Assembly: GCA_964415025.1 (NCBI GenBank) | Contig: CAYPXF010000001.1 | Span: 9,390-73,389, forward strand | Origin: an uncultured Gammaproteobacteria bacterium | GTDB lineage: Bacteria; Patescibacteriota; Patescibacteriia; UBA10025; JAHIVO01 | DNA length: 64,000 nt | Direction: 5' to 3' | Part shown: positions 2,351-64,000 of the stretch, piece after piece | How positions within the stretch are numbered: position 1 is the stretch's first letter | How the letters are laid out: each line of letters starts with the position of its first letter | Made by a program: the position numbers and the translations under genes | The notes under the pieces: generated by a model | The model's database searches: none | What the model saw: only the letters and a program-made list of their open reading frames with translations | Told to the model about the DNA's origin: nothing

Positions 2351-2355
2351 TAACT

Positions 2356-4718: not shown

Positions 4719-5725
4719 CGACCACTCCACACATTGGGATTATAGTATTAAATTGGAATGGTATTGATAACACCCGTCGCTGTCTTACATCCTTACAAAA
4801 AATCACTTACTCCAACTATTCTATATTTCTTGTTGACAATGGATCTACAATTAATGAATCGGATGTCTTAAAAAAGGAGTATCGGGAGATAATAGCCATT
4901 CGAACTAAAAATAATTTAGGCTTCTCTGGTGGAAATAACATTGGTATAAAATATGCACTATATGATTCCGATAATTATTGCGATTATATTCTAATTTTGA
5001 ACAATGATACAGTAGTTGAAAATAACTTTCTTTCTATCATGGTTAGAACTGCAATTCAAGACAACTCTGTCGGTATGGTAAGTCCAACCATGTTATCTAT
5101 GAATAATCATAATACTATTGATAATATGGGATTATGCCTCACCCTATCTGGTATTCCATTTAACAGAAAAAAGAATAAAAGAATTTTATTATGCCCTTCT
5201 GGCGGCGCGGCTTTGTATTCACGTCAAATGCTAAAAGATATATGCCTCGACGGTGACTATTTTGATTCCACTTTTTTTGCTTATGCTGAAGATTATGACA
5301 TAGGAATGAGAGCACTCCAAGCTGGCTACAAACCTGCACATGCGAATAACGCCATTATATATCATAAGGGTTCTGCATCAACTGGGTTAATGAGTGATTT
5401 TGCAATCTACCATACCTATCGAAATTTATTGCTAGTTATAGTTAAAGACTGGCCTTTCCTACTACTTGTTATCAATGCCCCCTGGATAATATTGATGCAA
5501 ATATGTTTAATCTTCCTCCATAGTAAACGCGGAACTATTCATATTCTACTTAATGCATACCGAGATTTTTTCAAATACATTCCACAATACATAAAAATGA
5601 GGAACATTATTCGTTCCCATAAACAGATAAGTTCTATTGTATTGCTTCGATATTTTGAAAAACGTGTAGTCCTACTGGAATATATACGAAATGCGATCTA
5701 TACTAACGGACAGTCTCAGGATTAA
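4715..5725 (+). CDS. Glycosyltransferase family 2
   Basis: GIIVLNWNGIDNTRRCLTSL...FLVDNGSTINES is the GT2 signature. There is an overlapping start. Confidence 0.75.
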   Translation: MTTTPHIGIIVLNWNGIDNTRRCLTSLQKITYSNYSIFLVDNGSTINESDVLKKEYREIIAIRTKNNLGFSGGNNIGIKYALYDSDNYCDYILILNNDTVVENNFLSIMVRTAIQDNSVGMVSPTMLSMNNHNTIDNMGLCLTLSGIPFNRKKNKRILLCPSGGAALYSRQMLKDICLDGDYFDSTFFAYAEDYDIGMRALQAGYKPAHANNAIIYHKGSASTGLMSDFAIYHTYRNLLLVIVKDWPFLLLVINAPWIILMQICLIFLHSKRGTIHILLNAYRDFFKYIPQYIKMRNIIRSHKQISSIVLLRYFEKRVVLLEYIRNAIYTNGQSQD

Positions 5726-7979: not shown

Positions 7980-9121
7980 GTTGCGTTATAAATTGCTACT
8001 AATTTATCTACTATAACATCCCATGAGAAGTGTTTCACTACTTTCTTTTTACCATTAGCTCCATATTCTTTTTTTAATTCTTCATTGTTTATAATAATGC
8101 GTATCTTTTTTGCAAGTTCTCTATCATTCCCTACCCGAAACGTAAGACCGTCCTTTCCTGTATTAATCAAGGTTCGAACCCCAGGCAAATCAGAAGTTAT
8201 AACCGGCGTACCGCACGCCATTGCCTCCAGCGTTACCAGGCCATATGCTTCTGTTTTATCAGTTGAAGGTAGTACTAATACATCAGCAACGTTATAAATA
8301 TCTATCAGTGTATCATTATCTACTTTATTTAAAAAGAATACCCTCGACTTAAGTGCGAGTTTATTGGATTGTTCCTCATATTCTGACTGTAAATTTCCTT
8401 TTCCAACAATAATTAATTTTGCTTCTGGCAACTCTTTCATGGCATTGAGCAATACGTCCAATCCTTTGAAATAGTGCGCTTCGTCAAGGCCGCCGACAAA
8501 AAGAACTATCTTTTTTTTATCTTTTCTGATTTTCTCAACTATTTCTCCTGTTATTTCTTTTTCTCTGAACTTATTTATATCTACACCATTAGCAAGGGGT
8601 ATAAATTTGTTCTCATGAGCACTATAGTATTTATATATGTCAGAATGTTCAAAATAATCCCAGGTTGATACAAGTACTTTATTCGCCCGCATAACAATTA
8701 GTTTGGTAAATACTGTCTTATATATCCAGAATAAATATCGTACCCATTTTCTACCCACTAAGTCCATTTGGTATTGTAATATAATCCTTACTTTTTTATC
8801 TAACAATAAATATAAATATAGAAACTCTAATCCAATAAACGGATAATGTATATGTACAATATCGTATTCTTTTATTTCTTTGCTAATATTAGGTAACAGG
8901 GAGGCATTCCCAAAGGTCAACAATGATTTTTTTTTAATTACTCGATATTTTGCGGGGTGATACATGTCCTGTATCTCATTTTTATATGACGGTATAATGA
9001 CATCAACATTCCACCCTCTTTTCGCCAGCCCCTCTACCTGATTTTTACATACATTACCAATCCCTCCCTTATACGGAGGGAATGTCGATACCACATGTGC
9101 TACTCGTAGTTTTTGTTTCAT
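7976..9121 (-). CDS. Glycosyltransferase family 1 (GT4)
   Basis: KVAHVVSTFPPYKGGIGNVCKNQVEGLAKRGWNVDVI is the N-terminal GT4 motif, and the C-terminus has a VLPSTDKTEAYGLVTLEAMACGTPVITSD block. Confidence 0.8.
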   Translation of the reverse strand: MKQKLRVAHVVSTFPPYKGGIGNVCKNQVEGLAKRGWNVDVIIPSYKNEIQDMYHPAKYRVIKKKSLLTFGNASLLPNISKEIKEYDIVHIHYPFIGLEFLYLYLLLDKKVRIILQYQMDLVGRKWVRYLFWIYKTVFTKLIVMRANKVLVSTWDYFEHSDIYKYYSAHENKFIPLANGVDINKFREKEITGEIVEKIRKDKKKIVLFVGGLDEAHYFKGLDVLLNAMKELPEAKLIIVGKGNLQSEYEEQSNKLALKSRVFFLNKVDNDTLIDIYNVADVLVLPSTDKTEAYGLVTLEAMACGTPVITSDLPGVRTLINTGKDGLTFRVGNDRELAKKIRIIINNEELKKEYGANGKKKVVKHFSWDVIVDKLVAIYNAT

Positions 9122-9123
9122 TA

Positions 9124-10098
9124 TTATTTAATCTGCTCTCTCCAGTAATTCAATGTGTCTACGAGCGTTGTGTTCATATAGTCAATTTCTGGTTTCCATC
9201 CTGTAGTATCACAAAACTTAGAGTTATCACCAAGCAATACCGGCACATCAGAGGGTCGCATTCTTTTCGGATCTTGTATCACTTTTATCCCCTTATGATT
9301 AGAGTGATTAATGAGTGCCTGCAGCACATCCTTTATTTTGTAATCCTGACCAGAGCAAATATTATATACCTCTCCGGGTTCGCATTTTTCGGTGGCGATC
9401 CAGTAAGCCTTTACGATATCACGCACATCAGTAAAATCACGTCGTGCATCTAGGTTGCCGACCTGAATAACGGGTTCTTTTCTACCACGCTCTATTTCTG
9501 CAACTTGTTTTGCAAAATTACTATCCACAAAAACATCTCCCCGTCTTGGGCCAGAATGATTAAATGTTCTTGTCCGTATTATTCGCACGCCATAACTCAT
9601 GTAATATTGATAGCCCATGTAGTCTTGTGCAACTTTAGATACGGCATACGGCGACATCGGGCGTAGCGGGTTTGATTCTCGTATAGGGATTTCATCAGGC
9701 TTCACCAGGCCATATTCTTCTGAAGAGCACGCAATTTGTATGACGGGGTTATAGTCATCGCTTATTAATTTTCTGACCGCCTCAAAAACATTACACTGTC
9801 CTGTAATATTTATTTCAAGCGTTTCGCTAGGAGATTCCCATGAGGTCGGGACAAAACTTTGCGCCGCCAGATGAAATATCTTATCTGGCTTAATTGTTTC
9901 AATAATACTCGATACATTATGGGCATCTTTGATATCACATTCATAAAAAGATATTGATGACTCAATGTCCTGGATATTTGCCATATTGCTTCGCCAGCGT
10001 TTGATGCCAAATATTTCAACATCCGGATGATGCTCTAAGATGTACTCGGCTAGATGACTGCCTACAAATCCGGTTATCCCGGTAATTAACACTTTCAT
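9124..10098 (-). CDS. NAD-dependent sugar-nucleotide epimerase/dehydratase. It resembles GDP-mannose 4,6-dehydratase or GDP-6-deoxy-4-keto-mannose reductase.
   Basis: Starts MKVLITGITGFVGSHLAEYIL with a Rossmann GxxGxxG loop, and has a YxxxK-type SDR core at YAVSKVAQDY. Confidence 0.7.
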   Translation of the reverse strand: MKVLITGITGFVGSHLAEYILEHHPDVEIFGIKRWRSNMANIQDIESSISFYECDIKDAHNVSSIIETIKPDKIFHLAAQSFVPTSWESPSETLEINITGQCNVFEAVRKLISDDYNPVIQIACSSEEYGLVKPDEIPIRESNPLRPMSPYAVSKVAQDYMGYQYYMSYGVRIIRTRTFNHSGPRRGDVFVDSNFAKQVAEIERGRKEPVIQVGNLDARRDFTDVRDIVKAYWIATEKCEPGEVYNICSGQDYKIKDVLQALINHSNHKGIKVIQDPKRMRPSDVPVLLGDNSKFCDTTGWKPEIDYMNTTLVDTLNYWREQIK

Positions 10099-10104
10099 AA
10101 TTTT

Positions 10105-11148
10105 TTATTCTTTCAATGATAATTCTTTTACGCTGATCCCATAATCTAAAAACCATTGTTTGATTTCTTTTTGTGTTGCCCGTACGCTTATGTTCTTTCT
10201 TTTTGTGATCATTTTTTGCGCTCCTGCTAATGCATGGAGCCACCCTTTACACACCGCATATACAAGCTTAACAAACGAATACTCCTTAACAAAATTACCT
10301 GATGATCCTTTGTGCGTCACTATGGCTACCGCTTGGTACGTATACCGTTTACATGAGTAATATATACTTGCCAGTATCATGCCCAGCGGCAGCAGTTTGA
10401 TGATAAACCAGATCCTGTTTCTCTCGATATAATACGCTTTTCGAGGAGAATATTTACCGGTCGTAGCGGAATACATATGATACACCCTCGCGTCAGGAAT
10501 AAATTTTGCTTTCCAGCCGGCGAGGCGTCCTCGAAAACCCAAATCGCTGTCCTCGAGGTAGAATTGAAAATCTTCATCGAGGAGTCCGATCTCATCAAGC
10601 ATTTTTTTGCTATACACCCCCCCACAACCGCTTGGCATTAAAATATCAGATTTATTATCAAATTGTCCCTCATCAGATTCCATTCTCCCCCTTCCTCTGC
10701 ATATCCCGTCCCGATAAATAATCAATCCTGTACTATCAATTATTTTTTTATCATAATAATTTAATATTTTTAATGCCCACATACCTGTCATATCCCGCTG
10801 GTTTTGTATGGTTTTGAGGATAGCAGCTAAACAATCTTCAGCGAGTTCAACATCATTATTAAGAAGTAAAATATAGTCCCCGCGAGCGTGTCGAATGCCA
10901 GCATTATTTCCAGCGGCATACGTATTTATTTTATTGACAATAGTTTTTATTGAAGGGAACTGTTTTTTAATATACTGAACAGAATTATCTGTGGAACCAT
11001 TATCTACAACAATAATCTCAAAATCAGATATTGTTTGTCGAAACAGTGATGGCAAACATATTTGTAAGCATTCTAAACCATTATAATTTAATATGACTAC
11101 TGATATAAGCGGATTTTTTGAAATTTCAGCCTCAAGCATTTGGATCAA
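10105..11148 (-). CDS. Glycosyltransferase family 2
   Basis: ISVVILNYNGLECLQICLPSL...IIVVDNGSTDNS is the GT2 signature. Confidence 0.8.
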   Translation of the reverse strand: MIQMLEAEISKNPLISVVILNYNGLECLQICLPSLFRQTISDFEIIVVDNGSTDNSVQYIKKQFPSIKTIVNKINTYAAGNNAGIRHARGDYILLLNNDVELAEDCLAAILKTIQNQRDMTGMWALKILNYYDKKIIDSTGLIIYRDGICRGRGRMESDEGQFDNKSDILMPSGCGGVYSKKMLDEIGLLDEDFQFYLEDSDLGFRGRLAGWKAKFIPDARVYHMYSATTGKYSPRKAYYIERNRIWFIIKLLPLGMILASIYYSCKRYTYQAVAIVTHKGSSGNFVKEYSFVKLVYAVCKGWLHALAGAQKMITKRKNISVRATQKEIKQWFLDYGISVKELSLKE

Positions 11149-11479
11149 TATCTTTCAGACTTTCTTTTCTGATAAATTCCTCGATTTTCCTTTCCATGCG
11201 TTTGACAATCACATAATTCCTAAACGTAACGCCAAAAAGCACGACAATGCCGACGATAATAACGAGATCAAACGTACGGCTGATACTAAACGCTTCCAAA
11301 ATAAATTTTACGCTTGTTGGAAATAAGACTACAACGACCAAGCCGATCCATAATACCTGCCATAAAATAAATTCTATTCTCCTAAATTCTCCCCGCCGGA
11401 AATGCAGGTAGCTAAAATAGATCATCCACAGCGCGAATAGTATAGCTAATATCTGTATACCGATCATATAATTCTCCAC
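11132..11479 (-). CDS. Small membrane protein, DUF2304-like, partner of the downstream GT2
   Basis: 115 aa with 3-4 TM segments, immediately 3' of and overlapping a dolichol-phosphate-mannose-synthase-like GT2. This is the usual DUF2304/GtrA-type pairing. Confidence 0.55.
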   Translation of the reverse strand: MENYMIGIQILAILFALWMIYFSYLHFRRGEFRRIEFILWQVLWIGLVVVVLFPTSVKFILEAFSISRTFDLVIIVGIVVLFGVTFRNYVIVKRMERKIEEFIRKESLKDIDPNA

Positions 11480-12126
11480 ATTAACATATTAAAAAATATT
11501 CTGATCCCGTCAATAATTGTCGTCCCTTTGTACCGGTCGGTATAGATTGTATCGATTGCTATTTCAGCGTGTGGGAGCTTATGCTTTCCGGCATTGACAA
11601 TCATTTCTGTCTCTACGGCATACCGTGATGAATTCCATTTTATTTTTTTATACGCTTCTGACCGTATTGCTCTGAATCCGCTTTGCGTGTCTGAAATGTA
11701 AATTCTAAATAAAATAGAAGTCGCTAACGAAAGAAATTTGTTGCCAAGCATCATGACTAACGGCATATCTTTACCTATTTTCCGAGAACCAAATACAATA
11801 TGCGCTCCCTTTTTTTCTACTGTCTCGATGAACCGAGGAATGTCTTCTGGTTTGTGCTGTCCGTCGCCATCCATCAGCACTATGATATCTGCGCCAAGTT
11901 TGATGCCCGCCTCACACCCGGTTTTCAGAGCCGCGCCTTTACCTAGATTTATTCTATGCCGTAAATACTTGATATCTTTACCAAAGCTACTAATAACATG
12001 TGCCGTATTATCTGTTGAGCCATCATCAACAATAATAATTTCATCAACATATGCAGCGGCCACTTTTATGATTGGCGCGATTCTTTTACCTTCATTAAAA
12101 GCTGGGATAACAGCGACAGATTTCAT
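11464..12126 (-). CDS. Glycosyltransferase family 2, dolichol-phosphate mannosyltransferase-like (polyprenyl-phosphate sugar synthase)
   Basis: VAVIPAFNEGKRIAPII...IIVDDGSTDNT, and the ~220 aa size matches the DPM1/GtrB family. Confidence 0.8.
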   Translation of the reverse strand: MKSVAVIPAFNEGKRIAPIIKVAAAYVDEIIIVDDGSTDNTAHVISSFGKDIKYLRHRINLGKGAALKTGCEAGIKLGADIIVLMDGDGQHKPEDIPRFIETVEKKGAHIVFGSRKIGKDMPLVMMLGNKFLSLATSILFRIYISDTQSGFRAIRSEAYKKIKWNSSRYAVETEMIVNAGKHKLPHAEIAIDTIYTDRYKGTTIIDGIRIFFNMLMWRII

Positions 12127-12140
12127 ATAATAATCATGAT

Positions 12141-13463
12141 TTACCTGCCTATGCCGCGATAAATTACTTTAGTTTTGGCAAATGCTTTTTTTGGCAAACA
12201 GTTTTTACCGTCAACAACTACCTTGACGCCTAATTTATTAAATAATTTCGGATCAAGCTCTTTAAATTCATTATGGTCAGTCACCACCACGGCTGCCTCT
12301 GCTTTTTTAAGCGCTGCTTCAATTGACTGTACATCAGACATATCCGGAAAATAGGGATCATACTGTATAACATCTGCGCCCTCTTTTTTTAGCAGTTCGA
12401 TGACTTTGAGCGCCGGGCTTTCGCGCAGGTCATCTACATTTGCTTTATACGATAATCCAAGCACGGCAACTTTTGTGCCGTTAAGCGGTTTTTTAATCTG
12501 GTTAAGCGCTTTCATCAGCGTGTTGACCGTATAGGCCGGCATGCTGTTATTAATCTCCCGGGCCAGCTTCAGGAATTTATGGTCAAATCCGGCTACCCTG
12601 GCCCGCTCTATCAAATAGTATGGATCGACCGGTATACAATGCCCGCCCACACCACACGAAGGATAATGCGCCATGAAGGCGAACGGCTTGGTCTTGGCCC
12701 CGTCGATAACGTCGACTAAATCAATGCCCAGCACCTCAAACGACTTAGCTAATTCATTAACAAAAGCAATATTAATATCTCTGAAAGAATTCTCAATAAT
12801 TTTAGTGGCTTCGGCCGCTTTGATGGATTGCATCGGCCTGATCTCGCCCTCTATTATTTTCCGGTAAAACTTGACTGCCAGCTGCAGGCCCTTTTTGCTT
12901 AGAGCGCCGACACAGCGGGGAATGTTGCGCACATTCCAATGCGGATCGCCGGGATTGATGCGCTCTGGCGCGTGGGCGAGGTAAAAATCCTTACCGCCGA
13001 CTAAACCTGAACCTTTTTCCAGAATCGGTAAAATTACTTCTTCGCATACGCCGGGATTGACGGTGGATTCCATAATGACCAGCTGGCCTTTTTTCAGGCA
13101 CTTGGCAACCTTTTTACTGGCCTCACGCACTGGTGTGAGATCAGGGTTGTGGTTTTTATCCACCGGCGTGGGTACGCAGATTATGATAATATCTGAATTT
13201 GGCAGGGAATCGTACTTGGTAGTGGCGGTAAACAGCTGCTGGCTCACCCAGTGATCAAGCTCGGCATCGCCTTTGATCGGCGATACGCCTTTGTTGATCT
13301 GGTTTATTTTTTTGGGGTCTTTGCCAATGCCGATGACTTCATAGCCCTTTTCCGCGGCCAGACATGCCAGGGGCAGACCAACATACCCGATGCCAATAAT
13401 TGATACTATTTCTTTTTTTCTGCGTTTTGACCTCCTTGCTTTAGATTTTGCTTTTTTTGCCAT
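12141..13463 (-). CDS. Nucleotide-sugar dehydrogenase (UDP-glucose 6-dehydrogenase family) with an unusual lysine/arginine-rich N-terminal tail
   Basis: IVSIIGIGYVGLPLACLAAEKGYEV is the NAD-binding motif, and catalytic cysteine context GGHCIPVDP is present. The first 18 residues are MAKKAKSKARRSKRRKKE. Confidence 0.8.
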   Translation of the reverse strand: MAKKAKSKARRSKRRKKEIVSIIGIGYVGLPLACLAAEKGYEVIGIGKDPKKINQINKGVSPIKGDAELDHWVSQQLFTATTKYDSLPNSDIIIICVPTPVDKNHNPDLTPVREASKKVAKCLKKGQLVIMESTVNPGVCEEVILPILEKGSGLVGGKDFYLAHAPERINPGDPHWNVRNIPRCVGALSKKGLQLAVKFYRKIIEGEIRPMQSIKAAEATKIIENSFRDINIAFVNELAKSFEVLGIDLVDVIDGAKTKPFAFMAHYPSCGVGGHCIPVDPYYLIERARVAGFDHKFLKLAREINNSMPAYTVNTLMKALNQIKKPLNGTKVAVLGLSYKANVDDLRESPALKVIELLKKEGADVIQYDPYFPDMSDVQSIEAALKKAEAAVVVTDHNEFKELDPKLFNKLGVKVVVDGKNCLPKKAFAKTKVIYRGIGR

Positions 13464-38393: not shown

Positions 38394-38696
38394 TTAAATC
38401 TTACCGGTCTTCGCACGACTGCCCAGTATTTGCCGGCAAACACCAGACCCCCTGAATGAATCTGCCAGTGAATAATAATGGTATTTCCCTTTTCGTATCC
38501 GTTGCACCATACCTTCACGCTCAAGCCGATTAAGGTGGAATGAAGCAGTTTTATACGAAAATTTCAGTTCACAAGTAATTGACATTACTGAATGCGGTTT
38601 TTTTGCAATCGTTTTAATAATCATCATTCGTCGTTCATTGCTTAATGCTCTGAACGCCCGAGCAAGCTGCTTTATAGTATACGTCATATTATTCAT
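38394..38696 (-). CDS. ArsR/SmtB-family transcriptional regulator. No metal-sensing CxC or DxHx10H motifs are visible.
   Basis: LSNERRMMIIKTIAKKPHSVMSITCELKFSYKTASFHLNRLEREGMVQRIRKGKYHYYSL is a winged helix of ArsR type. The ORF-track start (38720) is a TTG inside the palindrome, and the likely true start is the ATG at 38696 (MNNMTYTIKQL). Confidence 0.8.
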   Translation of the reverse strand: MNNMTYTIKQLARAFRALSNERRMMIIKTIAKKPHSVMSITCELKFSYKTASFHLNRLEREGMVQRIRKGKYHYYSLADSFRGSGVCRQILGSRAKTGKI

Positions 38697-38699
38697 TCT

Positions 38700-38717
38700 A
38701 ACATTCTTAAGAATGTT
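38700..38717. promoter_or_regulatory. Second copy of the AACATTCTTAAGAATGTT palindrome, immediately upstream of arsR1 (autoregulatory operator candidate)
   Basis: The 34-bp block cattctaacattcttaagaatgttcaa is duplicated at 38367-38400 and 38694-38727. Confidence 0.5.
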
Positions 38718-38730
38718 CAAGTGAAATATA

Positions 38731-52356: not shown

Positions 52357-53943
52357 CTATGTCATAAGTAAATTATGTCCGGTCATTTCCGGCGACGCTG
52401 GCAATCCCATATAGACAAGCATGGTGACGGCCACATCTGATAATATGCCGGTCGGCTGGAGCATGCTTAAATCATAGTCGACTATCAGATCCTTATATAA
52501 AGTCTGCCCCTGCCACTTGTTAGCAACAGCAATTAAAGGAACCGGATTAACGCTGTGTTCTTTATCAATTTCACCTGTCTGCAAATTAATCAACTCTTCA
52601 GCATTGCCATGGTCCGCCGTGATAAAGAGTAAACCGTCCTTTTCCAGCACTTTACGGGCCAGCTGTCCCAGACATTCATCTGTTACTGCTACTGCTTTTT
52701 CAGTGGCCTCGAGATTACCAGTATGCCCGACCATGTCCGGATTAGCGTAATTCACCACGCAAAAGTCATACTTGTCTGCATCTATTTCCTTAATCAGGCG
52801 CTCCGTGACTTCGTGAGCGCTCATGGCTGGCGCCTGATCATATGTCGATACTTGGGGAGACGGGATAATAACATTATCCTGGTTTTCAAACGGCTCTTCT
52901 CTGCCACCGTTAAAAAAGTAGGTTACGTGCGCGTACTTTTCTGTTTCTGCTATGTGGAGCTGTTTGAGTCCGGCCTCGGCAATAACGCGCGCCATAGGGT
53001 AATCAATTTTCTCCGGAGGAAAAGCAACCTCTACGGGTAAATCTTTATCATACTCTGTCATGGTGACGAAAAATATATTTTTAATATAATCGCGCTCAAA
53101 CTTATTAAACCCTGGCAGGACAAAAGCCGTAGTGATCTGGCGCGCACGGTCAGGCCGGAAATTAGCGAAAATCACCGCATCATTTTTATTGACCGTGGCG
53201 GTTGGCTTTGCCTCGGTGCCGATGACTGTCGGAATAAACTCCTCGTCATATATTTCTTGTTTATAGGATTCTTCGACGGCCTTGATTGGGTCTTTATAAT
53301 ACTGCTCTGACCTGCCTTCAGCAATGGCGCGGTAGGCTTTTTCCACACGCGGCCAGCGGTTGTCACGATCCATGGCATAAAATCGCCCTGATAGCGAAGC
53401 AATTTCACCGAATTTGAGCTCCTTAATTTTTTCCTGTACCTTTTTAACATAGGATAACCCGCTATCGCGTGGGGCGTCACGTCCATCAAGTATGAGATGC
53501 AAATAAACGTTTTTTAATCCCTGTTTTTGGCAGAATTCCATGAGAGCGAAGTAGTGATCTGTCGAGCTGTGAACACCGCCCGGCCCGATCATACCCAGCA
53601 AATGCATCGCTGATTTGTTTTTTTTGGCGTGTTCGGCCGCCGCCACAAATTTTTCGTTTGTGAAAAAACTGCCGTCAGAAATTGTCTTTGATATTCTGGG
53701 TAAATTTTGATAAATAATTCTGCCGGATCCGAGATTCAGGTGCCCCACCTCTGAATTGCCCATCTCGCCCCAGGGTAGGCCTACTGCCTCACCAGATGCC
53801 TGCAACGCCATGACTGGAAAAGTATCAATAAACCACTGCATGTTTGGAATTGGTGCAGTCGAAATTGGATTTCCCTTGCCAGCCGGGGCTATGCCCCAGC
53901 CGTCTAGGATCGCTAGGACTGTTGGTTTATTTGGTATTGGCAT
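52357..53943 (-). CDS. gpmI: 2,3-bisphosphoglycerate-independent phosphoglycerate mutase
   Basis: N-terminal VLAILDGWGIA...NSEVGHLNLGSGR, ~520 aa alkaline-phosphatase superfamily. Confidence 0.9.
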   Translation of the reverse strand: MPIPNKPTVLAILDGWGIAPAGKGNPISTAPIPNMQWFIDTFPVMALQASGEAVGLPWGEMGNSEVGHLNLGSGRIIYQNLPRISKTISDGSFFTNEKFVAAAEHAKKNKSAMHLLGMIGPGGVHSSTDHYFALMEFCQKQGLKNVYLHLILDGRDAPRDSGLSYVKKVQEKIKELKFGEIASLSGRFYAMDRDNRWPRVEKAYRAIAEGRSEQYYKDPIKAVEESYKQEIYDEEFIPTVIGTEAKPTATVNKNDAVIFANFRPDRARQITTAFVLPGFNKFERDYIKNIFFVTMTEYDKDLPVEVAFPPEKIDYPMARVIAEAGLKQLHIAETEKYAHVTYFFNGGREEPFENQDNVIIPSPQVSTYDQAPAMSAHEVTERLIKEIDADKYDFCVVNYANPDMVGHTGNLEATEKAVAVTDECLGQLARKVLEKDGLLFITADHGNAEELINLQTGEIDKEHSVNPVPLIAVANKWQGQTLYKDLIVDYDLSMLQPTGILSDVAVTMLVYMGLPASPEMTGHNLLMT

Positions 53944-55472
53944 AAAATCTTATTACCCATTTCTTTTGGTTTAGGCAAATGCAGCATATGTAATATGGTT
54001 GGGCCAATATCACAGAGCGCACCCTTTTTCATTGGCTCTTTGTTTGAAATCTTTTTATTGATAATAATAAATGGCACCGGGTTATTGGAATGAGCAGTAT
54101 CGACCTGCTCTGTATCCGGATCAATCACTTCCTCAACATTCCCGTGGTCAGCGGTAATAATCATGGTACCATTATGCTCCAATACTGTACGGTGCAGTTT
54201 GCCGAGACATTCATCGACTACTTCCACCGCCTCAACACTAGCGTTTAAATCACCGGTATGCGCTACCATATCCGGATTGGCATAATTTACCGCGATAAAA
54301 TCGTGTCCTTGTTTGCCAATATCATCTATTATCACTTTTGTAATCTCACGAGCGCTCATGGACGGCAGATCACGATATGAATACGCGTGCGGTGAGTGAA
54401 TAATGACACGATCCTCGCCCGCCACGGGATGATCATACCCCCCATTAAAAAAATACGTCATGTGCGCATACTTTTCTGTCTCGGCTACATAGAGCTGCCG
54501 CAGTCCGTCAAGCGCCATCGGCAAGGTATTTTTTATAAACCGTGCCGGATATGCTGACAATACACCGGGTAAATCAGGGCCAAAATCAGTCAAGGCGATA
54601 AACTTGAGATTTTTTAATCTCTTCTTACGTTCAAAACCATCGAAATCCGGCTGTACAAATGTTTTTGTCAGCTGGCGGACACGGTCAGAGCGTAGATTAA
54701 AAAATATGACTGCGTCATTATCACTAATTTGCCCCTTTTCCCGGCCGGGCAACTTGACCACGGTCGGCTTAATATATTCATCGTTTTCCTGCCTATTGTA
54801 AGCCTGGAGGATTGCATCGTCAGCAGATTCAGTAACCCTGCCTTTGCCCTGAACCAGCGCTTCATAAGCCATTTTAGTACGTTTCCATTCCTTATTCCGG
54901 TCCATGGAGTAGAATCGTCCCATGACCGTGGCAATTTTTTCTGTACCCAGCGTTTTTTTAAACCTTTGCAGTAATTTTATAGCGAGATACTGGTATGAAT
55001 CACGTCCGTCGGTAAACAAATGCAGATATACTTTTTTTATCCTTTTGAGTCGAGTCAGAGTCATGAGCGCCAGCACGTGGTCAGGATCGGCGTGGGCAGA
55101 CTGTTCTGCGGTAAACAAGCCCATCAGATGCAGTTTTGAATCATGTTTTTTGACATGATCGAGCGCTGTGATAAAAGCCGGATTTTTGAAAAAAATACCG
55201 TCGTTAATACTGCGGGAAATATGCACTGAATCTTGTTCGACTACCCGTCCCGCGCCGATATTCATATGACCTGCTTCTGAATTACCGCTTTGGTACGGCG
55301 GTAAGCCAACCTGCTTGCCAGAGGCCTGGAGTAGCGTATGCGGATATTTTTTAAAAAAGCTATCCATCACCGGCGTATCCGCCAAAAGGATAGCATTGCC
55401 GACTGTCTGTGTGGTAATACCCCATCCGTCGAGTATAACAAGTACAAATGGGCCTGCTTGTTCTGTAGTCAT
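53913..55472 (-). CDS. Second iPGM-family paralog (2,3-bisphosphoglycerate-independent phosphoglycerate mutase-like)
   Basis: VLVILDGWGIT...NSEAGHMNIGAGR. It is in tandem with gpmI and overlaps it by 31 nt. Confidence 0.8.
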   Translation of the reverse strand: MTTEQAGPFVLVILDGWGITTQTVGNAILLADTPVMDSFFKKYPHTLLQASGKQVGLPPYQSGNSEAGHMNIGAGRVVEQDSVHISRSINDGIFFKNPAFITALDHVKKHDSKLHLMGLFTAEQSAHADPDHVLALMTLTRLKRIKKVYLHLFTDGRDSYQYLAIKLLQRFKKTLGTEKIATVMGRFYSMDRNKEWKRTKMAYEALVQGKGRVTESADDAILQAYNRQENDEYIKPTVVKLPGREKGQISDNDAVIFFNLRSDRVRQLTKTFVQPDFDGFERKKRLKNLKFIALTDFGPDLPGVLSAYPARFIKNTLPMALDGLRQLYVAETEKYAHMTYFFNGGYDHPVAGEDRVIIHSPHAYSYRDLPSMSAREITKVIIDDIGKQGHDFIAVNYANPDMVAHTGDLNASVEAVEVVDECLGKLHRTVLEHNGTMIITADHGNVEEVIDPDTEQVDTAHSNNPVPFIIINKKISNKEPMKKGALCDIGPTILHMLHLPKPKEMGNKILCQYQINQQS

Positions 55473-58253: not shown

Positions 58254-58514
58254 TTAGTCTTTTTTACCCTGTACTTCAGTAATTGTCAGCTCTCTGCCTT
58301 TGCCTGGCTTAATAACAAGTTCTGCTTTTTCTGCGATAGTATTTTTTTTGACCAGATCAAAATTAAATAAGAGATTTTCCGGGGATAATTCTTCATTATG
58401 CGCTACGATTTTCCCCAAACGAACAGTAACAGTATCAACTGTTTTTAAATTATTTTCTTTAGCTGTGTGCAGGACGGCTTTGACAATGTCCTGCGCCGCT
58501 ACGAGGTCATGCAT
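58254..58514 (-). CDS. HypA-like hydrogenase nickel-insertion protein lacking the zinc-finger domain
   Basis: N-terminal MHDLVAAQDIVKAVLHTAKENNLKTVDTVTVRLGKI resembles the HypA N-terminus (MHE...). The protein is only 86 aa and has no cysteine residues. Confidence 0.55.
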   Translation of the reverse strand: MHDLVAAQDIVKAVLHTAKENNLKTVDTVTVRLGKIVAHNEELSPENLLFNFDLVKKNTIAEKAELVIKPGKGRELTITEVQGKKD

Positions 58515-58552
58515 ACTTTGGCTTGTGGCACGTGGCGTATAGCACGATGCCT

Positions 58553-58903
58553 TTAGTTAATCGTCTTTTTAAATGCGTTGAGTTTTTTAATCAGCAGTTC
58601 TGCTTCTTTGTATAGATCAACGAGTAATTTGTCAGCTATAAACTCTCTTTCTTTACAGAACTGTAATAATGAAACAGTCTCGAGCGCCGACTTAATGGCT
58701 ATATCGATAAAGTTTCTGAAATCGCGATTTGTCGTACCGCCGGAACCTTCAGCGATATTATTGGAAATAGAGACTGCAGCTCTTTTCAGCTGCGAAGACA
58801 TCCCAAATAACTCTTCCTTTGGTAAGGTATTAGCAAAATCATATAGTCTGTTACCATAAGCTATAGCTAATTGCCAAATTTCTAATTGCTCAAACCTGAA
58901 CAT
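58553..58903 (-). CDS. Four-helix-bundle protein (the family frequently encoded in 23S rRNA intervening sequences)
   Basis: FEQLEIWQLAIAYGNRLYDFANTLPKEELFGMSSQLKRAAVSISNNIAEG. The start was trimmed to the internal ATG at 58903. Confidence 0.7.
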   Translation of the reverse strand: MFRFEQLEIWQLAIAYGNRLYDFANTLPKEELFGMSSQLKRAAVSISNNIAEGSGGTTNRDFRNFIDIAIKSALETVSLLQFCKEREFIADKLLVDLYKEAELLIKKLNAFKKTIN

Positions 58904-58962
58904 ATGTTTTCTTCTTACTAGTACACGCAATACACTACAAGCTTTATGCCACGAGCTACACG

Positions 58963-60219
58963 CTAGTGAGTAGCACACGTCATGCACGGATCATATGCCC
59001 GGATCATCATGGCCAGCTTGCGCTGGTTAGCCGTACTCATTGTTTTCATCGAGCCCATATACTGCCGCAGGTCATCTTCCAGGTTATTAATAAACTGCGC
59101 GGTCGGGGTAATGATATTAACATTTTTCAATACGCCGTTTTTATCTGTTTCGTAATAATGTAATAAAATACCGCGCGGCGCCTCGATGGCGCCTACACCT
59201 TTACCAGCGCGTACTTTATATTTTTCCATGGGTTTAATGTGTTTTGTTTTAAAATACTGCTGTAATAATTTTTGCGCCTCTTCGACAAAATGGATCATTT
59301 CAATCCCCTGGCAATACACATTATAAAATGAATTGGTAATGGGCAGCTTAATATTAATATGCTTATAAGCCTGCCTGGCAATAGGATTTAATTGCTGGTG
59401 ATTATTATTAATCCGCGACAACGCGCCCACAAAATAAGCCTTGCCCTGATACTCCGTGCGCTTAACATAATCATCATCGCTGTGGATTTCCACGACTTTT
59501 TTCATGAATTGCTTGGGCGTCATGTCCAGCCCCTGGGTAGAGCCAATCCGACCGTCATAAAAGGCGTATTCTTTTGGATTAATCAGTGAAATATATTCAG
59601 TTGTACGGTTAAATTTATTGAATTTTAAATGTGAAATAAAATGCGCCAGCTCGACAGCTCCCTGGAGCGCTTCCTGGCTTTGCTCGTATAGCTCATGCAA
59701 CCGGCGTTTATCCGGCATCTTCAGAAAACCGCCTACCTGCGAATTAACCGGATGCAGGGCCCGGCCGCCGATAATTTCCGTAATCAAATTGCCAAACTTG
59801 CGGATAGTGAGGGCATGAGCAGAATATTCCGGCGCAATATCAAGTAAGTCCAGGGCTGAATCCTTGCCATAGAAATCAGGTATACTCATAAAATACGCGT
59901 GCACCCCGTGGCTGGTCAGCATTTGGCCCAGCATCATGAGTTTGCGCAGAACAACGGTCGGCTGCTGGACCTTTACTTTCATGGCATCTTCTATCGCTTT
60001 GATGGCCGTCAGGTTATGCACCACCGGACACACGCCGCAAATACGCGACGTCACCAGCGGCCCGTCCATATAGTTACGGCCGATCAGCACGCCCTCCATT
60101 AATCGTGCGCCTTCTAACGTTTGGTAGCGCGCCTCGGCCATATTACCGGACTTGAGCGCTCCCCAGAAGGTCGCGTGTCCCTCAATACGTGTAATGTGTT
60201 TTATTTTAACAGTTTTCAT
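58963..60219 (-). CDS. [NiFe]-hydrogenase large subunit, short form, with no C-terminal extension
   Basis: Has RIEGH, the L1 motif RICGVCPVVH, and the L2 motif DPCMTCATH followed directly by the stop codon. 418 aa. Confidence 0.9.
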   Translation of the reverse strand: MKTVKIKHITRIEGHATFWGALKSGNMAEARYQTLEGARLMEGVLIGRNYMDGPLVTSRICGVCPVVHNLTAIKAIEDAMKVKVQQPTVVLRKLMMLGQMLTSHGVHAYFMSIPDFYGKDSALDLLDIAPEYSAHALTIRKFGNLITEIIGGRALHPVNSQVGGFLKMPDKRRLHELYEQSQEALQGAVELAHFISHLKFNKFNRTTEYISLINPKEYAFYDGRIGSTQGLDMTPKQFMKKVVEIHSDDDYVKRTEYQGKAYFVGALSRINNNHQQLNPIARQAYKHINIKLPITNSFYNVYCQGIEMIHFVEEAQKLLQQYFKTKHIKPMEKYKVRAGKGVGAIEAPRGILLHYYETDKNGVLKNVNIITPTAQFINNLEDDLRQYMGSMKTMSTANQRKLAMMIRAYDPCMTCATH

Positions 60220-60274
60220 AAGTAAGTAATCAGTAACTGGTAACTAGTAATAAGTACGTATGCTTTATTTACAA

Positions 60275-61084
60275 TTATTTTTTCTTTTTAACCTCCTGCT
60301 GTCTATACCACTGTTCCTGAATCCCGAATATCTGCAGAATGTGTTCCAGTTGCTTGCGGCTGATGAGTTTTAATAACTGCTTTTCCAGCTGCCTGGTATC
60401 ATAGCCAGGTAAAATACCGCGGCAGCCTTTGCAAAAGAATTTGGAGTTCAGGCAGACCGCGTTGCACCCGCCACGAATGACCGGACCCAGGCACGGCTCG
60501 CCTTTTTGCAAGAGGCATTCGTTGCCATTGAGCTGGCATTCGTAGCATACCGGATTTTCCAGAATTTGCGGCGGGACGCCTTCGCGGATCGCGTTAAGCA
60601 CAGCCACAAAGTCTTCACCGATCGGCGGACAGCCAGGGATGATGAAGTCCACCTTGACGAAACGACTGATCGGCCTGATATTAGGATTAAAAACTTTTTG
60701 GTATGTCTTGGGAAACTGATACCGCACCGCCTTTTCTTTATCCATGTAATTTTTAATATTGGGGATAACGCCGAAATGCGCGCAGGCGCCGATGCCGATC
60801 AAGTAATCAGCCCGCTGACGTATTGCTTTCAGAGACTTGATATTCGCCTTAGTCAGCGGCGCGCCCTCGATAATAGCCACGTCATAGTGCGCGTCTTTTT
60901 TCTTTTCCTCCATGATGATAAAAAAATCTCCCAGCTCAAAATGGTCGATCGAGGCGATAAACTCCTTGCCCATGTCCAAAATAGACACCGAACAACCGTC
61001 GCAGGAAGTTAGTCCAACAATAGCGACTTTGAGTTTTTTCTTGCTACTTTTCTTCGACATTTTTATATTACTATTTCTACTCAT
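60275..61084 (-). CDS. [NiFe]-hydrogenase small subunit
   Basis: LTSCDGCSVS, GACAHFG and IIPGCPP are the Fe-S ligands and the GCPP motif. 269 aa with a K-rich N-terminus. Confidence 0.8.
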   Translation of the reverse strand: MSRNSNIKMSKKSSKKKLKVAIVGLTSCDGCSVSILDMGKEFIASIDHFELGDFFIIMEEKKKDAHYDVAIIEGAPLTKANIKSLKAIRQRADYLIGIGACAHFGVIPNIKNYMDKEKAVRYQFPKTYQKVFNPNIRPISRFVKVDFIIPGCPPIGEDFVAVLNAIREGVPPQILENPVCYECQLNGNECLLQKGEPCLGPVIRGGCNAVCLNSKFFCKGCRGILPGYDTRQLEKQLLKLISRKQLEHILQIFGIQEQWYRQQEVKKKK

Positions 61085-61616
61085 TTATAATATTTGTTAT
61101 ATGAGTGTTAATTCCACTGTCAGCAGCCAACTGCGTAAAATCATTAATCTCTTTAATTATCGAACCGCCAATATTTCTTACCTCTTCAATTGATTTAGCT
61201 TTTTTTGTATCAGCGTGCATATATAAATTTCTATAACGATGATACATGCTTCCAATAATTATTATGTGATCAAGCAGCTCTTTTTTTGTTTTTAAATCAA
61301 TATTCCTCTTGTAATCTTTTGAAGTCTGTTCAGAATTAGAAATCATATCAATATATTCAGAAAATGCTTCCTTGTTCTTACCTTCATTATCATATAGGTA
61401 TCTCCCTAAATGTTTTGGCTTTATTTCTGGGATAAAAGGAATATAGCCTACTGATTGCAAAATATCAAACAAATATTTTTCAAAAGCTTTACATATTGGT
61501 TGAAGGTATAATGAAAAATCGTGAAGATTAATCCTTTTAATACAATCATTATCAAGTAATAGTAGAAAGTCATAAACCCAATCCACAAAGTCATCATATT
61601 CTATAAGGTATTTCAA
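61077..61616 (-). CDS. Hypothetical protein encoded by an AT-rich insert in the hydrogenase operon. It contains an Rx4H motif (possible HEPN-like).
   Basis: 179 aa. The gene is about 33% GC, against about 50% for its flanks. It has MYHRYRNLYMHAD in its C-terminal third. Confidence 0.4.
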   Translation of the reverse strand: MKYLIEYDDFVDWVYDFLLLLDNDCIKRINLHDFSLYLQPICKAFEKYLFDILQSVGYIPFIPEIKPKHLGRYLYDNEGKNKEAFSEYIDMISNSEQTSKDYKRNIDLKTKKELLDHIIIIGSMYHRYRNLYMHADTKKAKSIEEVRNIGGSIIKEINDFTQLAADSGINTHITNIINE

Positions 61617-61701
61617 GACTTTTGTATCAAAATGCTTCGAAAGTAAAGAATACCTAGGATCAGATTCAATTTTATGGCCTAAAGCAATATCTTCTAATCT
61701 T

Positions 61702-61917
61702 TTATCCCTTACTATAAGAATTAAAAAGTTTTAATCGTTCTGTTGCTTCTTTTTTATCTAGTTTGTAGACCGCGAAATTATTTTCATTCATCACATAGTC
61801 CCCTACCTTTACTTCCGGAACCAGTCGCGTATCGAGCGTGTGCGTGTCCTCACCGCAGGCAACGGTGGCCTGCGTACCTTTGAGTTTTATTATTTTGTGG
61901 GGGATGGTGAGACACAT
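61702..61917 (-). CDS. hypC: Hydrogenase maturation factor HypC/HupF
   Basis: Starts MCLTIP (conserved N-terminal Cys2), and is 71 aa. Confidence 0.8.
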   Translation of the reverse strand: MCLTIPHKIIKLKGTQATVACGEDTHTLDTRLVPEVKVGDYVMNENNFAVYKLDKKEATERLKLFNSYSKG

Positions 61918-62028: not shown

Positions 62029-62838
62029 CTAACTACTAAACATCACTCCCTCTCTGGACATTTTAATCTTTTGTAAATCATCTTCCCGCCACAGCCGGTG
62101 GAAATCAACGTCTTTCTTTGTTTCATCGATTATCTGGCCAGTCATGTCCACATTAAAAAAAGTTTCCTTGGCATAGTCGATAGTCGCTACCTTATCACCC
62201 AGCACTTGCTTGATCGTCCGTTGCATAAATGCCTTCTGGTCCTGCTGCTGCTGGAGCTGTCGGGCTAGGAGCTGTAATGGTTTTGTGTCAGCACTGGCTA
62301 TAATAACACCGAAATGATGAAATACTGTTTGTCCAAGCCGAACCTGTACTGCTCCTGGCACTAGTACGTGGGAAAATGTAACCGTTTGGTTACAAACTAT
62401 TACCTCTACTTCAGCTAATTGGCGCTGGTCAATAGAGCGCAGTGATTTGATAGTACCGATGGTCAGCACGTGGGCCAGGGCATAAGACGGCCCGAACAGC
62501 AGATGTGACTGATTTTCCTCGACCGCATCCACGTGATCCAGGGCAAAGCATTCTAACATATTAACCGCACTGATGCGTGTCAATCCACGTTCGGCGGCAT
62601 AAGCGGCGATAGATGAGGGAAAAGCCGTAATAATATGGGAGGAAATATCAAGTAATAATACCGGCTGGCCGGTCAAAAACTTCGCCAGATTGACGTCTGC
62701 CTTGCAGCCAGGATGGAGAAATAAATGCACCAGTATCTCCACCGCGCCCGGCTCCAGAATAATATTCTCGAAATTATCAAACGACAGCCGCCGGGCTTGT
62801 TCGAGATTTTTTAATATTGCTTGGGTATGAGAATTCAT
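62029..62838 (-). CDS. Hypothetical protein co-located with hypC. The size and layout are reminiscent of DUF4213+DUF364 putative metal-chelation proteins, which is very tentative.
   Basis: 269 aa with no hard motif. An ArsR-type operator palindrome lies 13 bp upstream of its start. Confidence 0.35.
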   Translation of the reverse strand: MNSHTQAILKNLEQARRLSFDNFENIILEPGAVEILVHLFLHPGCKADVNLAKFLTGQPVLLLDISSHIITAFPSSIAAYAAERGLTRISAVNMLECFALDHVDAVEENQSHLLFGPSYALAHVLTIGTIKSLRSIDQRQLAEVEVIVCNQTVTFSHVLVPGAVQVRLGQTVFHHFGVIIASADTKPLQLLARQLQQQQDQKAFMQRTIKQVLGDKVATIDYAKETFFNVDMTGQIIDETKKDVDFHRLWREDDLQKIKMSREGVMFSS

Positions 62839-62871: not shown

Positions 62872-63156
62872 TTATTTGCTACTGGTAATTTGTTTAAACA
62901 CTCCTGATGATCGAAACTCTTTAGATAATGTATAAAATGTATTTTTTCCCTTACGTACTTTTTGAATAATTCCTTCCCGCTCCATTTTACTTAGGTGAAA
63001 TGATGTTGCCGGAAAAGAAAGAGATAATTGTTCGCTTAACTTGCCAGCACTTGTTGAGCCTTTTGCTAACAGCTTAATTATTTTCATTCTACGTTCATTA
63101 CCCAAAACACGAAATACTCGTGATAGTTTAGTTGTAGAGAATGTATGCCTGGGCAT
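62872..63156 (-). CDS. ArsR/SmtB-family transcriptional regulator (paralog of the 38.4-kb arsR)
   Basis: LGNERRMKIIKLLAKGSTSAGKLSEQLSLSFPATSFHLSKMEREGIIQKVRKGKNTFYTL. About 50% identical by eye to the other ArsR. Confidence 0.8.
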   Translation of the reverse strand: MPRHTFSTTKLSRVFRVLGNERRMKIIKLLAKGSTSAGKLSEQLSLSFPATSFHLSKMEREGIIQKVRKGKNTFYTLSKEFRSSGVFKQITSSK

Positions 63157-63167
63157 GGTTATATCAA

Positions 63168-63974
63168 TTAAACATTTTTGGAAATGTTTAATATTAATTC
63201 ATTCTTAAATGATTTTATACGCTGTATGCCAATAATCAATCCTATTCCAATTAGCATCAAGACAACTCCACCGACCTGTATTAACGACCAACCTACACCC
63301 TGATTCGCAATAATTGTAATCAAACCTGTAATCGGCGCACCGAGCGCTAATATGGCCGTGGCTACTGACGCACGCACATGTTTTAGGCCATGGTAAAATG
63401 TAAATACATAGCCGAACAAAAACAACGAAGTAATAATAATCCATTTCCACTGCTCGGGATTATACGCAAAAACCGCGCCTATCTGTCTCGTGCTCAATAA
63501 ATAGAAGGAAATAAATACTGCGCCAAAAAACATTCGTCCCCAGGCTACCAGACGGGCAGATAGTTGCGCCAAAGCTTTTTTTGATATAATAATTTCTGCC
63601 GCCCAAAACAGCGTGGCTAAGAAAACCAAACCATCGCCCCAGCCAATACCGCTCGGTCTGATGCCGAGAAATAATATGTTACCGATTAATAACGCTCCCA
63701 GGCCGAATAGCAAACTTTTATTCAGTTTCTCTTTCAGAAAAATAATTGCCAAGAAACCGACGTATATGAACATCGTCTTATGGATAAACGAACCCTGAGC
63801 CGGAATAGTCATGGACAATCCTTTGAAAAAGAGAAGGAATGGTATAGCGCCGCCAACCAGGCCGATAGTTATCAGCTGATACCATTGTTTCCGTGTCAAC
63901 TGTTTAATCTGCGGCCATTCTTTCAAAAGTAGAATAACGGAAAAGAATAAAACACCGACGAGCAGATTTTTCAT
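63168..63974 (-). CDS. EamA/DMT-family transporter (10-TM permease)
   Basis: 268 aa with 10 predicted helices and the duplicated EamA-like half architecture. Confidence 0.65.
   Translation of the reverse strand: MKNLLVGVLFFSVILLLKEWPQIKQLTRKQWYQLITIGLVGGAIPFLLFFKGLSMTIPAQGSFIHKTMFIYVGFLAIIFLKEKLNKSLLFGLGALLIGNILFLGIRPSGIGWGDGLVFLATLFWAAEIIISKKALAQLSARLVAWGRMFFGAVFISFYLLSTRQIGAVFAYNPEQWKWIIITSLFLFGYVFTFYHGLKHVRASVATAILALGAPITGLITIIANQGVGWSLIQVGGVVLMLIGIGLIIGIQRIKSFKNELILNISKNV
63171..63188. promoter_or_regulatory. Second copy of AACATTTTTGGAAATGTT, upstream of arsR2 (autoregulatory operator candidate)
   Basis: The block caattaaacatttttggaaatgttt is duplicated at 62845-62875 and 63165-63195. 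Confidence 0.5.
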
Positions 63975-64000
63975 GCCGGTAAATACCGCCGGGTTGCTGA

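Follow-up and report, generated by a model that had tools for sequence, protein, structure and literature searches.

The end of a 64,000-nt stretch of patescibacterial DNA (hereafter the window, whose numbering is used for all positions) very probably carries the distal two-thirds of a cluster of 11 genes, all on one strand, that serves a cytoplasmic [NiFe]-hydrogenase, a heterotetramer of group 3b belonging to the Patescibacteria (Candidate Phyla Radiation, CPR) and fitting the CPR clade known as hyd1. An enzyme of this type is of an already known kind, group 3b hydrogenases being well known in CPR, and the value of the locus lies only in its maturation genes, which probably constitute an undescribed, clade-wide variant of the maturation module: a large (α) subunit devoid of a C-terminal tail, no protease, a HypA reduced to a single domain, a HypC lacking His51 and a partner protein containing a HypC domain. 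The tail-less α, the absence of a nearby protease and the one-domain HypA are common to every CPR relative examined. It may tentatively be proposed, as a possibility falling short of a likelihood, that the group 3b cluster of CPR and DPANN encodes a remodelled and hitherto undescribed module which loads the tail-less α without a protease or a HypB step; this module would comprise the one-domain HypA, the His51-less HypC, a HypC-domain fusion (DUF6390 or, rarely, the protein here called orf269) and often an EamA transporter, and orf269/DUF6390 would be a new maturation factor.

The structural and maturation genes concerned are the following, positions called "virtual" being those in which the same numbering is extended past 64000 by means of contig L001 (lengths in amino acids, aa):

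58254..58514, minus strand: hypA', the one-domain HypA, 86 aa (Pfam HypA)
58963..60219, minus strand: hydA, group 3b large (α) subunit, 418 aa (PDB, NCBIfam)
60275..61084, minus strand: hydD, small (δ) subunit, 269 aa (PDB, NCBIfam)
61702..61917, minus strand: hypC, HypC-family chaperone, 71 aa (Pfam HupF_HypC)
62029..62838, minus strand: orf269, cluster gene directly upstream of hypC, 269 aa, conserved in the cluster
virtual 64195-65028 (L001 5192-6025), minus strand: hydG, γ subunit, 277 aa (NAD_binding_1/DHODB_Fe-S)
virtual 65100-66167 (L001 4053-5120), minus strand: hydB, β subunit, 355 aa (Fer4_22)

The maturation of [NiFe]-hydrogenases is usually described as universal, consisting of the action of HypA to HypF followed by the cleavage of a C-terminal peptide that serves as a nickel checkpoint. 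What the peptide is for, why HypA requires a zinc domain and how His51 of HypC contributes to holding the iron unit are all debated, and the present lineage amounts to a natural experiment on these matters, insofar as tail, HypA zinc domain and HypC His51 are all missing or changed whereas the nearest characterised relatives possess all three. Hydrogenases without an extension occur in other groups too, but the combination found here bears directly on the roles of the three elements; furthermore, two uncharacterised HypC-domain proteins are tied to the cluster, and the arrangement could make it simpler to produce NAD(P)-linked hydrogenases in heterologous hosts.

A four-subunit hydrogenase of group 3b

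The large subunit contains the L1 motif RICGVCPVVH (residues 59-68) and the L2 motif DPCMTCATH (residues 410-418) and, with them, all four cysteines that ligate Ni and Fe (C61, C64, C412 and C415); these cysteines, together with R59, H68 and the EAPRG motif, are among the 57 columns found to be invariant in 29 sequences ranging down to 44% identity. Its best PDB matches are the α subunit of Pyrococcus furiosus sulfhydrogenase I (SHI) and Thermococcus kodakarensis HyhL (E ~2e-61), which precede the enzymes of groups 3c, 3d and 3a, the bit scores descending from 211 for these 3b enzymes to 181 for Mvh (3c) and 130-160 for the NAD-reducing enzymes, with 95-152 for Frh (3a); in NCBIfam it is closest to the families ShyA and HydA. 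The small subunit, which has 12 cysteines (enough for three [4Fe-4S] clusters) and no twin-arginine translocation (Tat) signal, finds its best PDB match in the δ subunit of sulfhydrogenase 1 (E = 3e-43), ranks the hydrogenase groups in the same way as α and has ShyD and HydD as its best NCBIfam families. By this ranking of PDB and NCBIfam similarities, on which the assignment is based rather than on the HydDB classifier or a reference tree, the enzyme is to be placed in group 3b (sulfhydrogenase type). An earlier note on this DNA, drawn up from the letters alone, had described the enzyme as group 3- or group 4-like; the former affiliation is borne out, specifically as 3b, while the latter finds no support, the closest enzymes being SHI, SHII and Hyh.

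The other two subunits are reached by L001 only, a contig that agrees with the window at each of the 15,038 bases they share (0 mismatches) and runs 6.2 kb further. On the same strand γ begins 195 bp past the window end and β ends ~2,170 bp past it, and their best PDB matches are the γ (E = 2e-40) and β (E = 4e-23) subunits of P. furiosus sulfhydrogenase I; ShyB/HydB (β) and ShyC/HydG (γ) are among the top NCBIfam matches, beside the related AsrA/AsrB families. The gene order downstream of eamA agrees in two independent runs. Moreover, β and γ are part of a layout shared by three relatives whose large subunits are 75%, 70% and 50% identical to that of the window, namely β-γ-EamA-(ArsR)-orf269 or DUF6390-HypC-δ-(Ldh_2)-α-(IVP)-short HypA. 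The Ldh_2 gene, encoding 312-323 aa between the small and the large subunit, is found in L003 (9033-10004), L004 (9066-10004) and L005 (9011-9982) and overlaps the start of the large subunit in L003 and L004; it does not occur in the window, where the gap between δ and α is 55 bp.

Every named sequence among the best 120 homologues of α (from 100% down to 44% identity) comes from Patescibacteria/CPR or an unclassified "bacterium". The first report of a hyd1-type hydrogenase in CPR is said to be that of Wrighton et al. in 2012. Group 3b hydrogenases have since been well documented in these bacteria (PMC10811913; PMC10945355), and Jaffe et al. (2020) defined a CPR-specific group 3b clade, hyd1, in which the small subunit has about 250 aa, β and γ are sometimes not immediately upstream of δ and a HypC-like family occurs in the neighbourhood (PMC7304191). 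Judged from its gene content the locus fits this description, having patescibacterial close homologues, a full-length small subunit, β and γ away from δ and a HypC-like family nearby; no structural difference from hyd1 is apparent, and the paper that defined the clade is silent on the missing tail, the truncated HypA, the His-less HypC and orf269/DUF6390, containing 0 uses of the word "maturation" (PMC7304191).

With the archaeal enzymes SHI and SHII of P. furiosus and Hyh of T. kodakarensis (PDB 9nez, 9e15, 5yxy) the window enzyme has in common the four subunits, the L1 and L2 motifs, the 12-cysteine δ and a cytoplasmic nature without Tat signal, all four subunits finding their best PDB match in SHI. 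On the other hand, identity to the SHI/SHII families is low and the scores remain far under the NCBIfam equivalog cut-offs, while eamA, arsR, orf269 and hypC split γ from δ, as is not the case in the SHI/SHII/Hyh operons. A further distinction concerns maturation: the archaeal SHI/Hyh precursors have a short peptide after the L2 histidine (428 aa, with the His at 424), a dedicated protease and a full Zn-HypA, whereas the window enzyme has no peptide, no nearby protease and a one-domain HypA.

A large subunit without a C-terminal tail

The sequence of α terminates in ...DPCMTCATH followed by TAG, so that its last residue is His418 and the length of the extension is 0, as the earlier note had seen; the protein is thus synthesised in what is already the processed form. 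This proves to be a lineage-wide property, since 118 of the 118 full-length sequences among the best 120 homologues likewise end exactly at the L2 histidine. A sequencing error or recoding at this stop codon, the former having been named in the earlier note as a test of its claim, was considered and rejected, because the stop is conserved in all these homologues and because in-frame read-through beyond it yields RVARGIKLVVYCVY, followed by a stop, a sequence unrelated to the FLDVEW-type tails of relatives.

A wider comparison was obtained by scanning a single genome of each species, which gave 80 loci whose open reading frames (ORFs) were called and searched with the cluster proteins, with a hidden Markov model of the short HypA and with signature motifs for HypB, HypD, HypE, HypF and a HycI-type protease. 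The tail length is 0 in 37 of 37 complete CPR loci, in two of which the last motif deviates (DLCISCAVH, DVCANCAIN), and the motif scan detected no protease in any CPR locus. Among the 43 loci not labelled as CPR that have a complete α (34-38% identity), α bears a tail of 5-24 aa in 40, its sequence typically being FLDVEW-like, and a protease is encoded directly after α in 16; two Dehalococcoidales loci and one archaeal locus likewise possess a tail-less α of group 3b. The second variant motif belongs to locus L039 (10001-11260, Moraniibacteriota), whose α ends ...YDVCANCAIN, with replacements at the Pro of DPC as well as at the last His of L2, and which may be a diverging or inactive copy.

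The absence of a protease gene, likewise remarked upon in the earlier note, holds for the entire window by Pfam search and six-frame motif scan; no HycI-type protease was found by motif or Pfam match in the 6.2-kb (L001) and 9.1-kb (L086) flanks either. The Pfam search of the window covered all sizeable ORFs outside 46.7-58.2 kb, those within this segment carrying precomputed Pfam labels.

Hydrogenases that naturally have no extension are listed in the literature for groups 2b, 2d, 4c, 4e and 4g, not for 3b, and these retain the canonical Hyp machinery (PMC7294309). Their large subunits (HoxBC/HupUV in 2b, 2d, CooH in 4c, Ech in 4e, 4g) resemble that of the window in ending at L2 and in having no endopeptidase step; they differ from it in belonging to other phylogenetic groups and in being matured by the canonical HypA-F, including Zn-HypA.

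A HypA consisting of one domain

The 86-aa product of hypA' begins with MHD and contains 0 cysteines and no zinc finger; the earlier description of it as a cysteine-less, nickel-binding N-domain stands, being supported by its match to Pfam HypA (PF01155, E = 6e-11, 42.8 bits against a cut-off of 28.9), which covers only profile positions 1-66 of 112, and by the NCBIfam HypA models, which it matches over positions 1-65 only (47 and 42 bits against cut-offs of 146 and 88), and extending to the whole lineage. Indeed, wherever the CPR loci possess a HypA gene (36 of 36), it lies downstream of α, at a distance of 2-1771 bp that mostly accommodates zero or one inserted gene, and encodes a protein of 79-95 aa with an MHD start; a zinc-finger motif of the type CxxC...CxxC was found in none of the 36, three of which carry a single Cys. 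A profile built from 26 short HypAs aligns with residues 1-65 of T. kodakarensis HypA, i.e., with its nickel-binding domain, and the family displays a mean column identity of 76% and an invariant His39. In the loci not labelled as CPR every HypA seen, with one exception (L060), has 114-140 aa, an MHE start and a zinc finger.

Thus, hypA' shares with the known HypAs (T. kodakarensis, 3a43/5yxy; Helicobacter pylori, 2kdx/6g81; Escherichia coli) the Met-His-acid nickel motif, the nickel-binding domain and a gene adjacent to the hydrogenase, and it differs from them in that the whole CxxC...CxxC zinc domain (~45-50 residues) is cleanly missing, in having MHD instead of MHE and in its extra invariant His at position 39. 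No account of a HypA without zinc was found in the literature. Since the zinc region is reported to hold residues critical for the HypA-HypB contact (PMC13202556), and this is the part that is missing, HypB is probably dispensable and a HypA of this kind probably works in its absence.

HypC, orf269 and DUF6390

The HypC noticed in the earlier note is indeed present at 61702-61917, minus strand. It matches Pfam HupF_HypC (PF01455) with E = 3.5e-18 and 65.9 bits against a cut-off of 28.5, scores slightly under the cut-off of TIGR00074 (46.2 against 48), starts with MCLTIP, thereby keeping the N-terminal Met-Cys, and aligns with residues 1-66 of T. kodakarensis HypC. In the column of His51 (E. 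coli numbering), a proposed Fe ligand in the HypCD complex, it has a Glu (VMNENNFAV versus VIVHTGFAI). A role is ascribed to both C2 and H51 of HypC, and exchange of His51 in E. coli leads to loss of hydrogenase activity and of cofactor content (PMC12134894). The cluster's protein keeps the Cys2 and the OB fold signature of HypC, HybG and HupF but departs from them in having Glu for His51.

The two types of HypC are found in different company. Whereas hypD/hypE adjoin hypC in 13 of the 15 loci with a His51-type HypC, this is the case in 0 of the 18 loci with a His-less HypC, where the adjoining gene encodes DUF6390 or, in the window organism and its closest relatives, orf269. The C-terminal 70-90 residues of DUF6390 match HypC (hhalign, 96% probability, E = 1.4e-9), a conserved Cys being aligned with Cys2 of HypC and a conserved His with His51; no mention of DUF6390 was found in the literature. 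As to orf269, its family has 19 relatives among 1.84 billion representative proteins and the conserved Cys/His motifs FLNPDC, CFALDH, YALAH and VFHHFGVV. An AlphaFold model made with an 18-sequence alignment (pLDDT, i.e., predicted local distance difference test, 86; only 33 with the single sequence) has a helical N-domain followed by a five-stranded barrel and helices; the match of the orf269 profile to HypC is weak (E = 4e-4 to 6e-3), no significant match of the model to the PDB was obtained by Foldseek and no significant relation to DUF6390 by hhalign. It is nonetheless probable that orf269 contains a HypC-like (OB) domain behind its N-terminal helical domain, and it is a candidate accessory (maturation) protein; on the sequence comparisons, orf269 and DUF6390 are treated as positional equivalents, not as homologues.

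Both proteins would carry a HypC-like domain (in orf269, a probable one) that, unlike HypC itself, is internal, coming after an N-terminal domain of 120-150 aa, and in which the equivalent of Cys2 is not N-terminal, being a Cys in DUF6390 and His123 in orf269. Two further loci should be mentioned in this connection. In L022 (8311-9024) a gene for a 237-aa protein separates a His-less hypC from the small-subunit gene; residues 138-198 of this protein match HupF_HypC below the threshold (E = 7e-5), which may make it a third version of the HypC-domain fusion. In L065 (Candidatus Woesearchaeota, DPANN, ~10001-13400) the set EamA, DUF6390 and His-less HypC occurs as in CPR, together with an α having a 7-aa tail, which hints at an exchange of the accessory module between CPR and DPANN.

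The maturation route

The favoured reading, considered likely, is that HypD, HypE and HypF are encoded elsewhere in the genome and that the proteins of the cluster represent a specialised delivery end. Some observations weigh against the proposals made here. No hypB, hypD, hypE or hypF gene was found in the window by Pfam on sizeable ORFs and six-frame motif scan, in keeping with the earlier note, nor in the 6.2 kb added by L001 and the 9.1 kb added by L086, which brings the coverage to ~79 kb out of a genome of ~1 Mb; none of the four is found within ±10 kb of the clusters with a His-less HypC (0 of 18); and in L060, a locus not labelled as CPR, a HypA that is short and Zn-less is found alongside a protease and a tail of 9 aa, indicating that the traits usually occur together but are separable and not mechanistically locked.

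Nothing on hyp genes in CPR was found in the literature. Clusters of the Moranbacteria type, in which hypC-hypD-hypE and a truncated hypF adjoin the same kind of hydrogenase, imply that the Patescibacteria as a group use HypCDE(F) chemistry. One such locus, L014 (2433-9044, Moranbacteria), has the order hypC-hypD-VanZ-hypE with a 403-aa HypF on the opposite strand, the latter consisting of the C-terminal Kae1-like domains only, without the acylphosphatase, zinc-finger or YrdC parts; in clusters of this type NuoF-like and [FeFe]-hydrogenase-like/NuoG-like genes located upstream replace β and γ.

The absence of hypB/D/E/F from the regions covered could also be taken at face value, in which case the genomes with this cluster type would have no hypD/E/F/B and would rely either on a new NiFe route or on a cofactor or precursor made by the host. 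This is thought to be unlikely, although it agrees with the contrasting distribution of hypD/hypE beside canonical and His-less hypC described above and with the alternation of arrangements within the Moranbacteria themselves, where either hypC-hypD-hypE-hypF' or the His-less hypC with the 237-aa HypC-domain protein is found. It would also be in line with the reduced, host-dependent metabolism of CPR (PMC7304191) and with the fact that none of the best 120 homologues of a Moranbacteria HypD, which saturate in Moranbacteria, Parcubacteria and Falkowbacteria, lies on the large contigs with this cluster type, a weak point inasmuch as the list saturates within the Moranbacteria. Yet the absence pertains only to ~79 kb and to ±10-kb flanks, and hyp genes are often unlinked to the structural genes; in known chemistry a HypC is meaningless without HypD, HypE/F are the only enzymes known to produce the cyanide ligands, and the other extension-less hydrogenases keep the canonical machinery (PMC7294309).

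It is very improbable that the locus is a decaying or non-catalytic relic, in which the loss of the tail, of the zinc domain and of His51 and the insertions would reflect erosion in an enzyme no longer binding NiFe. Two foreign-looking genes do interrupt the cluster, the final His is lost in the ...CANCAIN terminus of L039, and CPR "hydrogenases" of the Ehr type have lost their metal-binding cysteines (PMC7304191); however, the invariant α columns comprise all four ligand cysteines, 12 of 12 Fe-S cysteines of δ are kept, the short HypA is strongly conserved, with an invariant H39, and the recurrence of the same features across many CPR lineages speaks for selection, not decay.

Least credible of all is the view of the earlier note that this is a minimal, stripped-down hydrogenase made of a large and a small subunit without diaphorase partners: only α and δ lie within the window and no β or γ is found in the CPR clade hyd2 (PMC7304191), but the two-subunit appearance arises because the window stops at 64000, before β and γ, which follow directly on the identical contig and on the same strand and are also present in the relatives, completing a normal αβγδ complex, and the small subunit is of full length (269 aa, 12 Cys) compared with ~164 aa in hyd2.

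Proposed working of the enzyme

On the assumption that the genes for HypD, HypE and HypF lie in another part of the genome and that these proteins build the Fe(CN)2CO unit, the latter would be handed to α by the HypC-type proteins of the cluster, i.e., by its HypC, perhaps with orf269. HypA' would supply the nickel through its MHD N-terminus, possibly with the participation of the invariant His39, and closure of the active site would require no proteolytic step, just as in other hydrogenases that naturally have no extension. The products of orf179 and of the IVP gene, presumed to be later insertions, would stand outside this machine.

Once matured, the enzyme is predicted to couple NAD(P)H, through γ and β, to the reduction of protons and thereby to serve the fermentative disposal of reductant. 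Such an H2-evolving or bidirectional role, of which the former had been put forward as a possibility in the earlier note, would fit the neighbouring genes for pyruvate:ferredoxin oxidoreductase (PFOR), acetate kinase, a phosphotransacetylase (PTA)-like protein and lower glycolysis.

Other genes of the cluster and its setting

The full order on the minus strand is hydB-hydG-eamA-arsR-orf269-hypC-orf179-hydD-hydA-IVP-hypA' (11 genes), followed by pgk with a promoter-like site of its own. The four members that have not yet been specified are:

58553..58906, minus strand: four-helix-bundle 23S_rRNA_IVP (IVP) gene, 117 aa from the ATG at 58906 (Pfam, TIGR02436)
61077..61616, minus strand: orf179, AT-rich ORF between hypC and hydD, 179 aa, no family assigned
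62872..63156, minus strand: ArsR/SmtB-type metalloregulator, 94 aa (Pfam HTH_5, E = 2e-11)
63168..64000, minus strand: transporter of the EamA (DMT) family, truncated at the window end (Pfam EamA)

The EamA protein has a full length of 306 aa in L001, its true start being at virtual 64088, and is conserved in 10 or more of the CPR hydrogenase clusters as well as in one Woesearchaeota cluster. Among the relatives, only the closest ones (L001-L003) have the adjoining ArsR/SmtB regulator (NCBIfam HTH_metalloreg, 64 bits against a cut-off of 55) in this place, and a role for it in metal (nickel?) sensing is possible. A second ArsR/SmtB-type regulator, related to it with E = 2e-25, is encoded elsewhere in the window (38394-38720, minus strand).

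The gene orf179 has a guanine-plus-cytosine (GC) content of 28%, compared with 42-47% for its neighbours, overlaps the start of hydD by 8 bp and occurs in L001 and L002, both from the same organism, but not in relatives; it looks like a recent insertion. Like orf269, it goes unmentioned in the earlier note. Its product has no match in PDB, PADLOC, PHROGs or NCBIfam and as its only match the RnlA-toxin DBD, below the cut-off (E = 0.006); a toxin-like function is possible, and its RNLYMH sequence, an Rx4H motif, and the sub-threshold Pfam match are all that would suggest a HEPN-like protein.

That a four-helix-bundle gene lies between hypA' and the large subunit, as the earlier note had it, is confirmed by Pfam (PF05635, E = 4e-30, 104.5 bits against 33.8) and TIGR02436 (E = 1e-29, 102.8 bits against 24); the ATG at 58906 is a realistic start, the longer ORF from the GTG at 58987 overlapping the large subunit. 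Its GC content is 36% versus 46% for α. In the Kerfeldbacteria relative L004 no IVP gene occupies this site, but one does in L003 (11288-11653), L023 (11275-11643), L033 (11467-11820) and L037 (11330-11695), these copies being only 31-49% identical to that of the window, which suggests that the spacer between α and hypA is repeatedly occupied by a mobile family of small genes that are passengers rather than contributors to hydrogenase function. A second copy is located between β and γ in L033, and in L028 one lies upstream of β. No meaningful repeats were found flanking orf179 or the IVP gene.

Across the locus a scan for promoters and terminators performed no better than on shuffled sequences, save for the one good promoter-like site before pgk. 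The flanking genes form a glycolysis/fermentation block (46.7-58.2 kb) with pgk, enolase, two paralogues of cofactor-independent phosphoglycerate mutase, the PTA-like gene, acetate kinase and PFOR. The two mutase genes are in tandem and overlap (52357-53943 and 53913-55472, minus strand; 528 and 519 aa), and the pair is kept in L003 and L004. Finally, positions 1-12000 of the window differ from the next 40 kb in GC content (28-38% versus ~45-50%) and contain polysaccharide-synthesis genes, encoding a flippase, a UDP-GlcNAc 2-epimerase, GT2 and GT4 glycosyltransferases and a dehydratase, along with a 758-aa ORF without family; this segment is probably a variable surface-glycan island.

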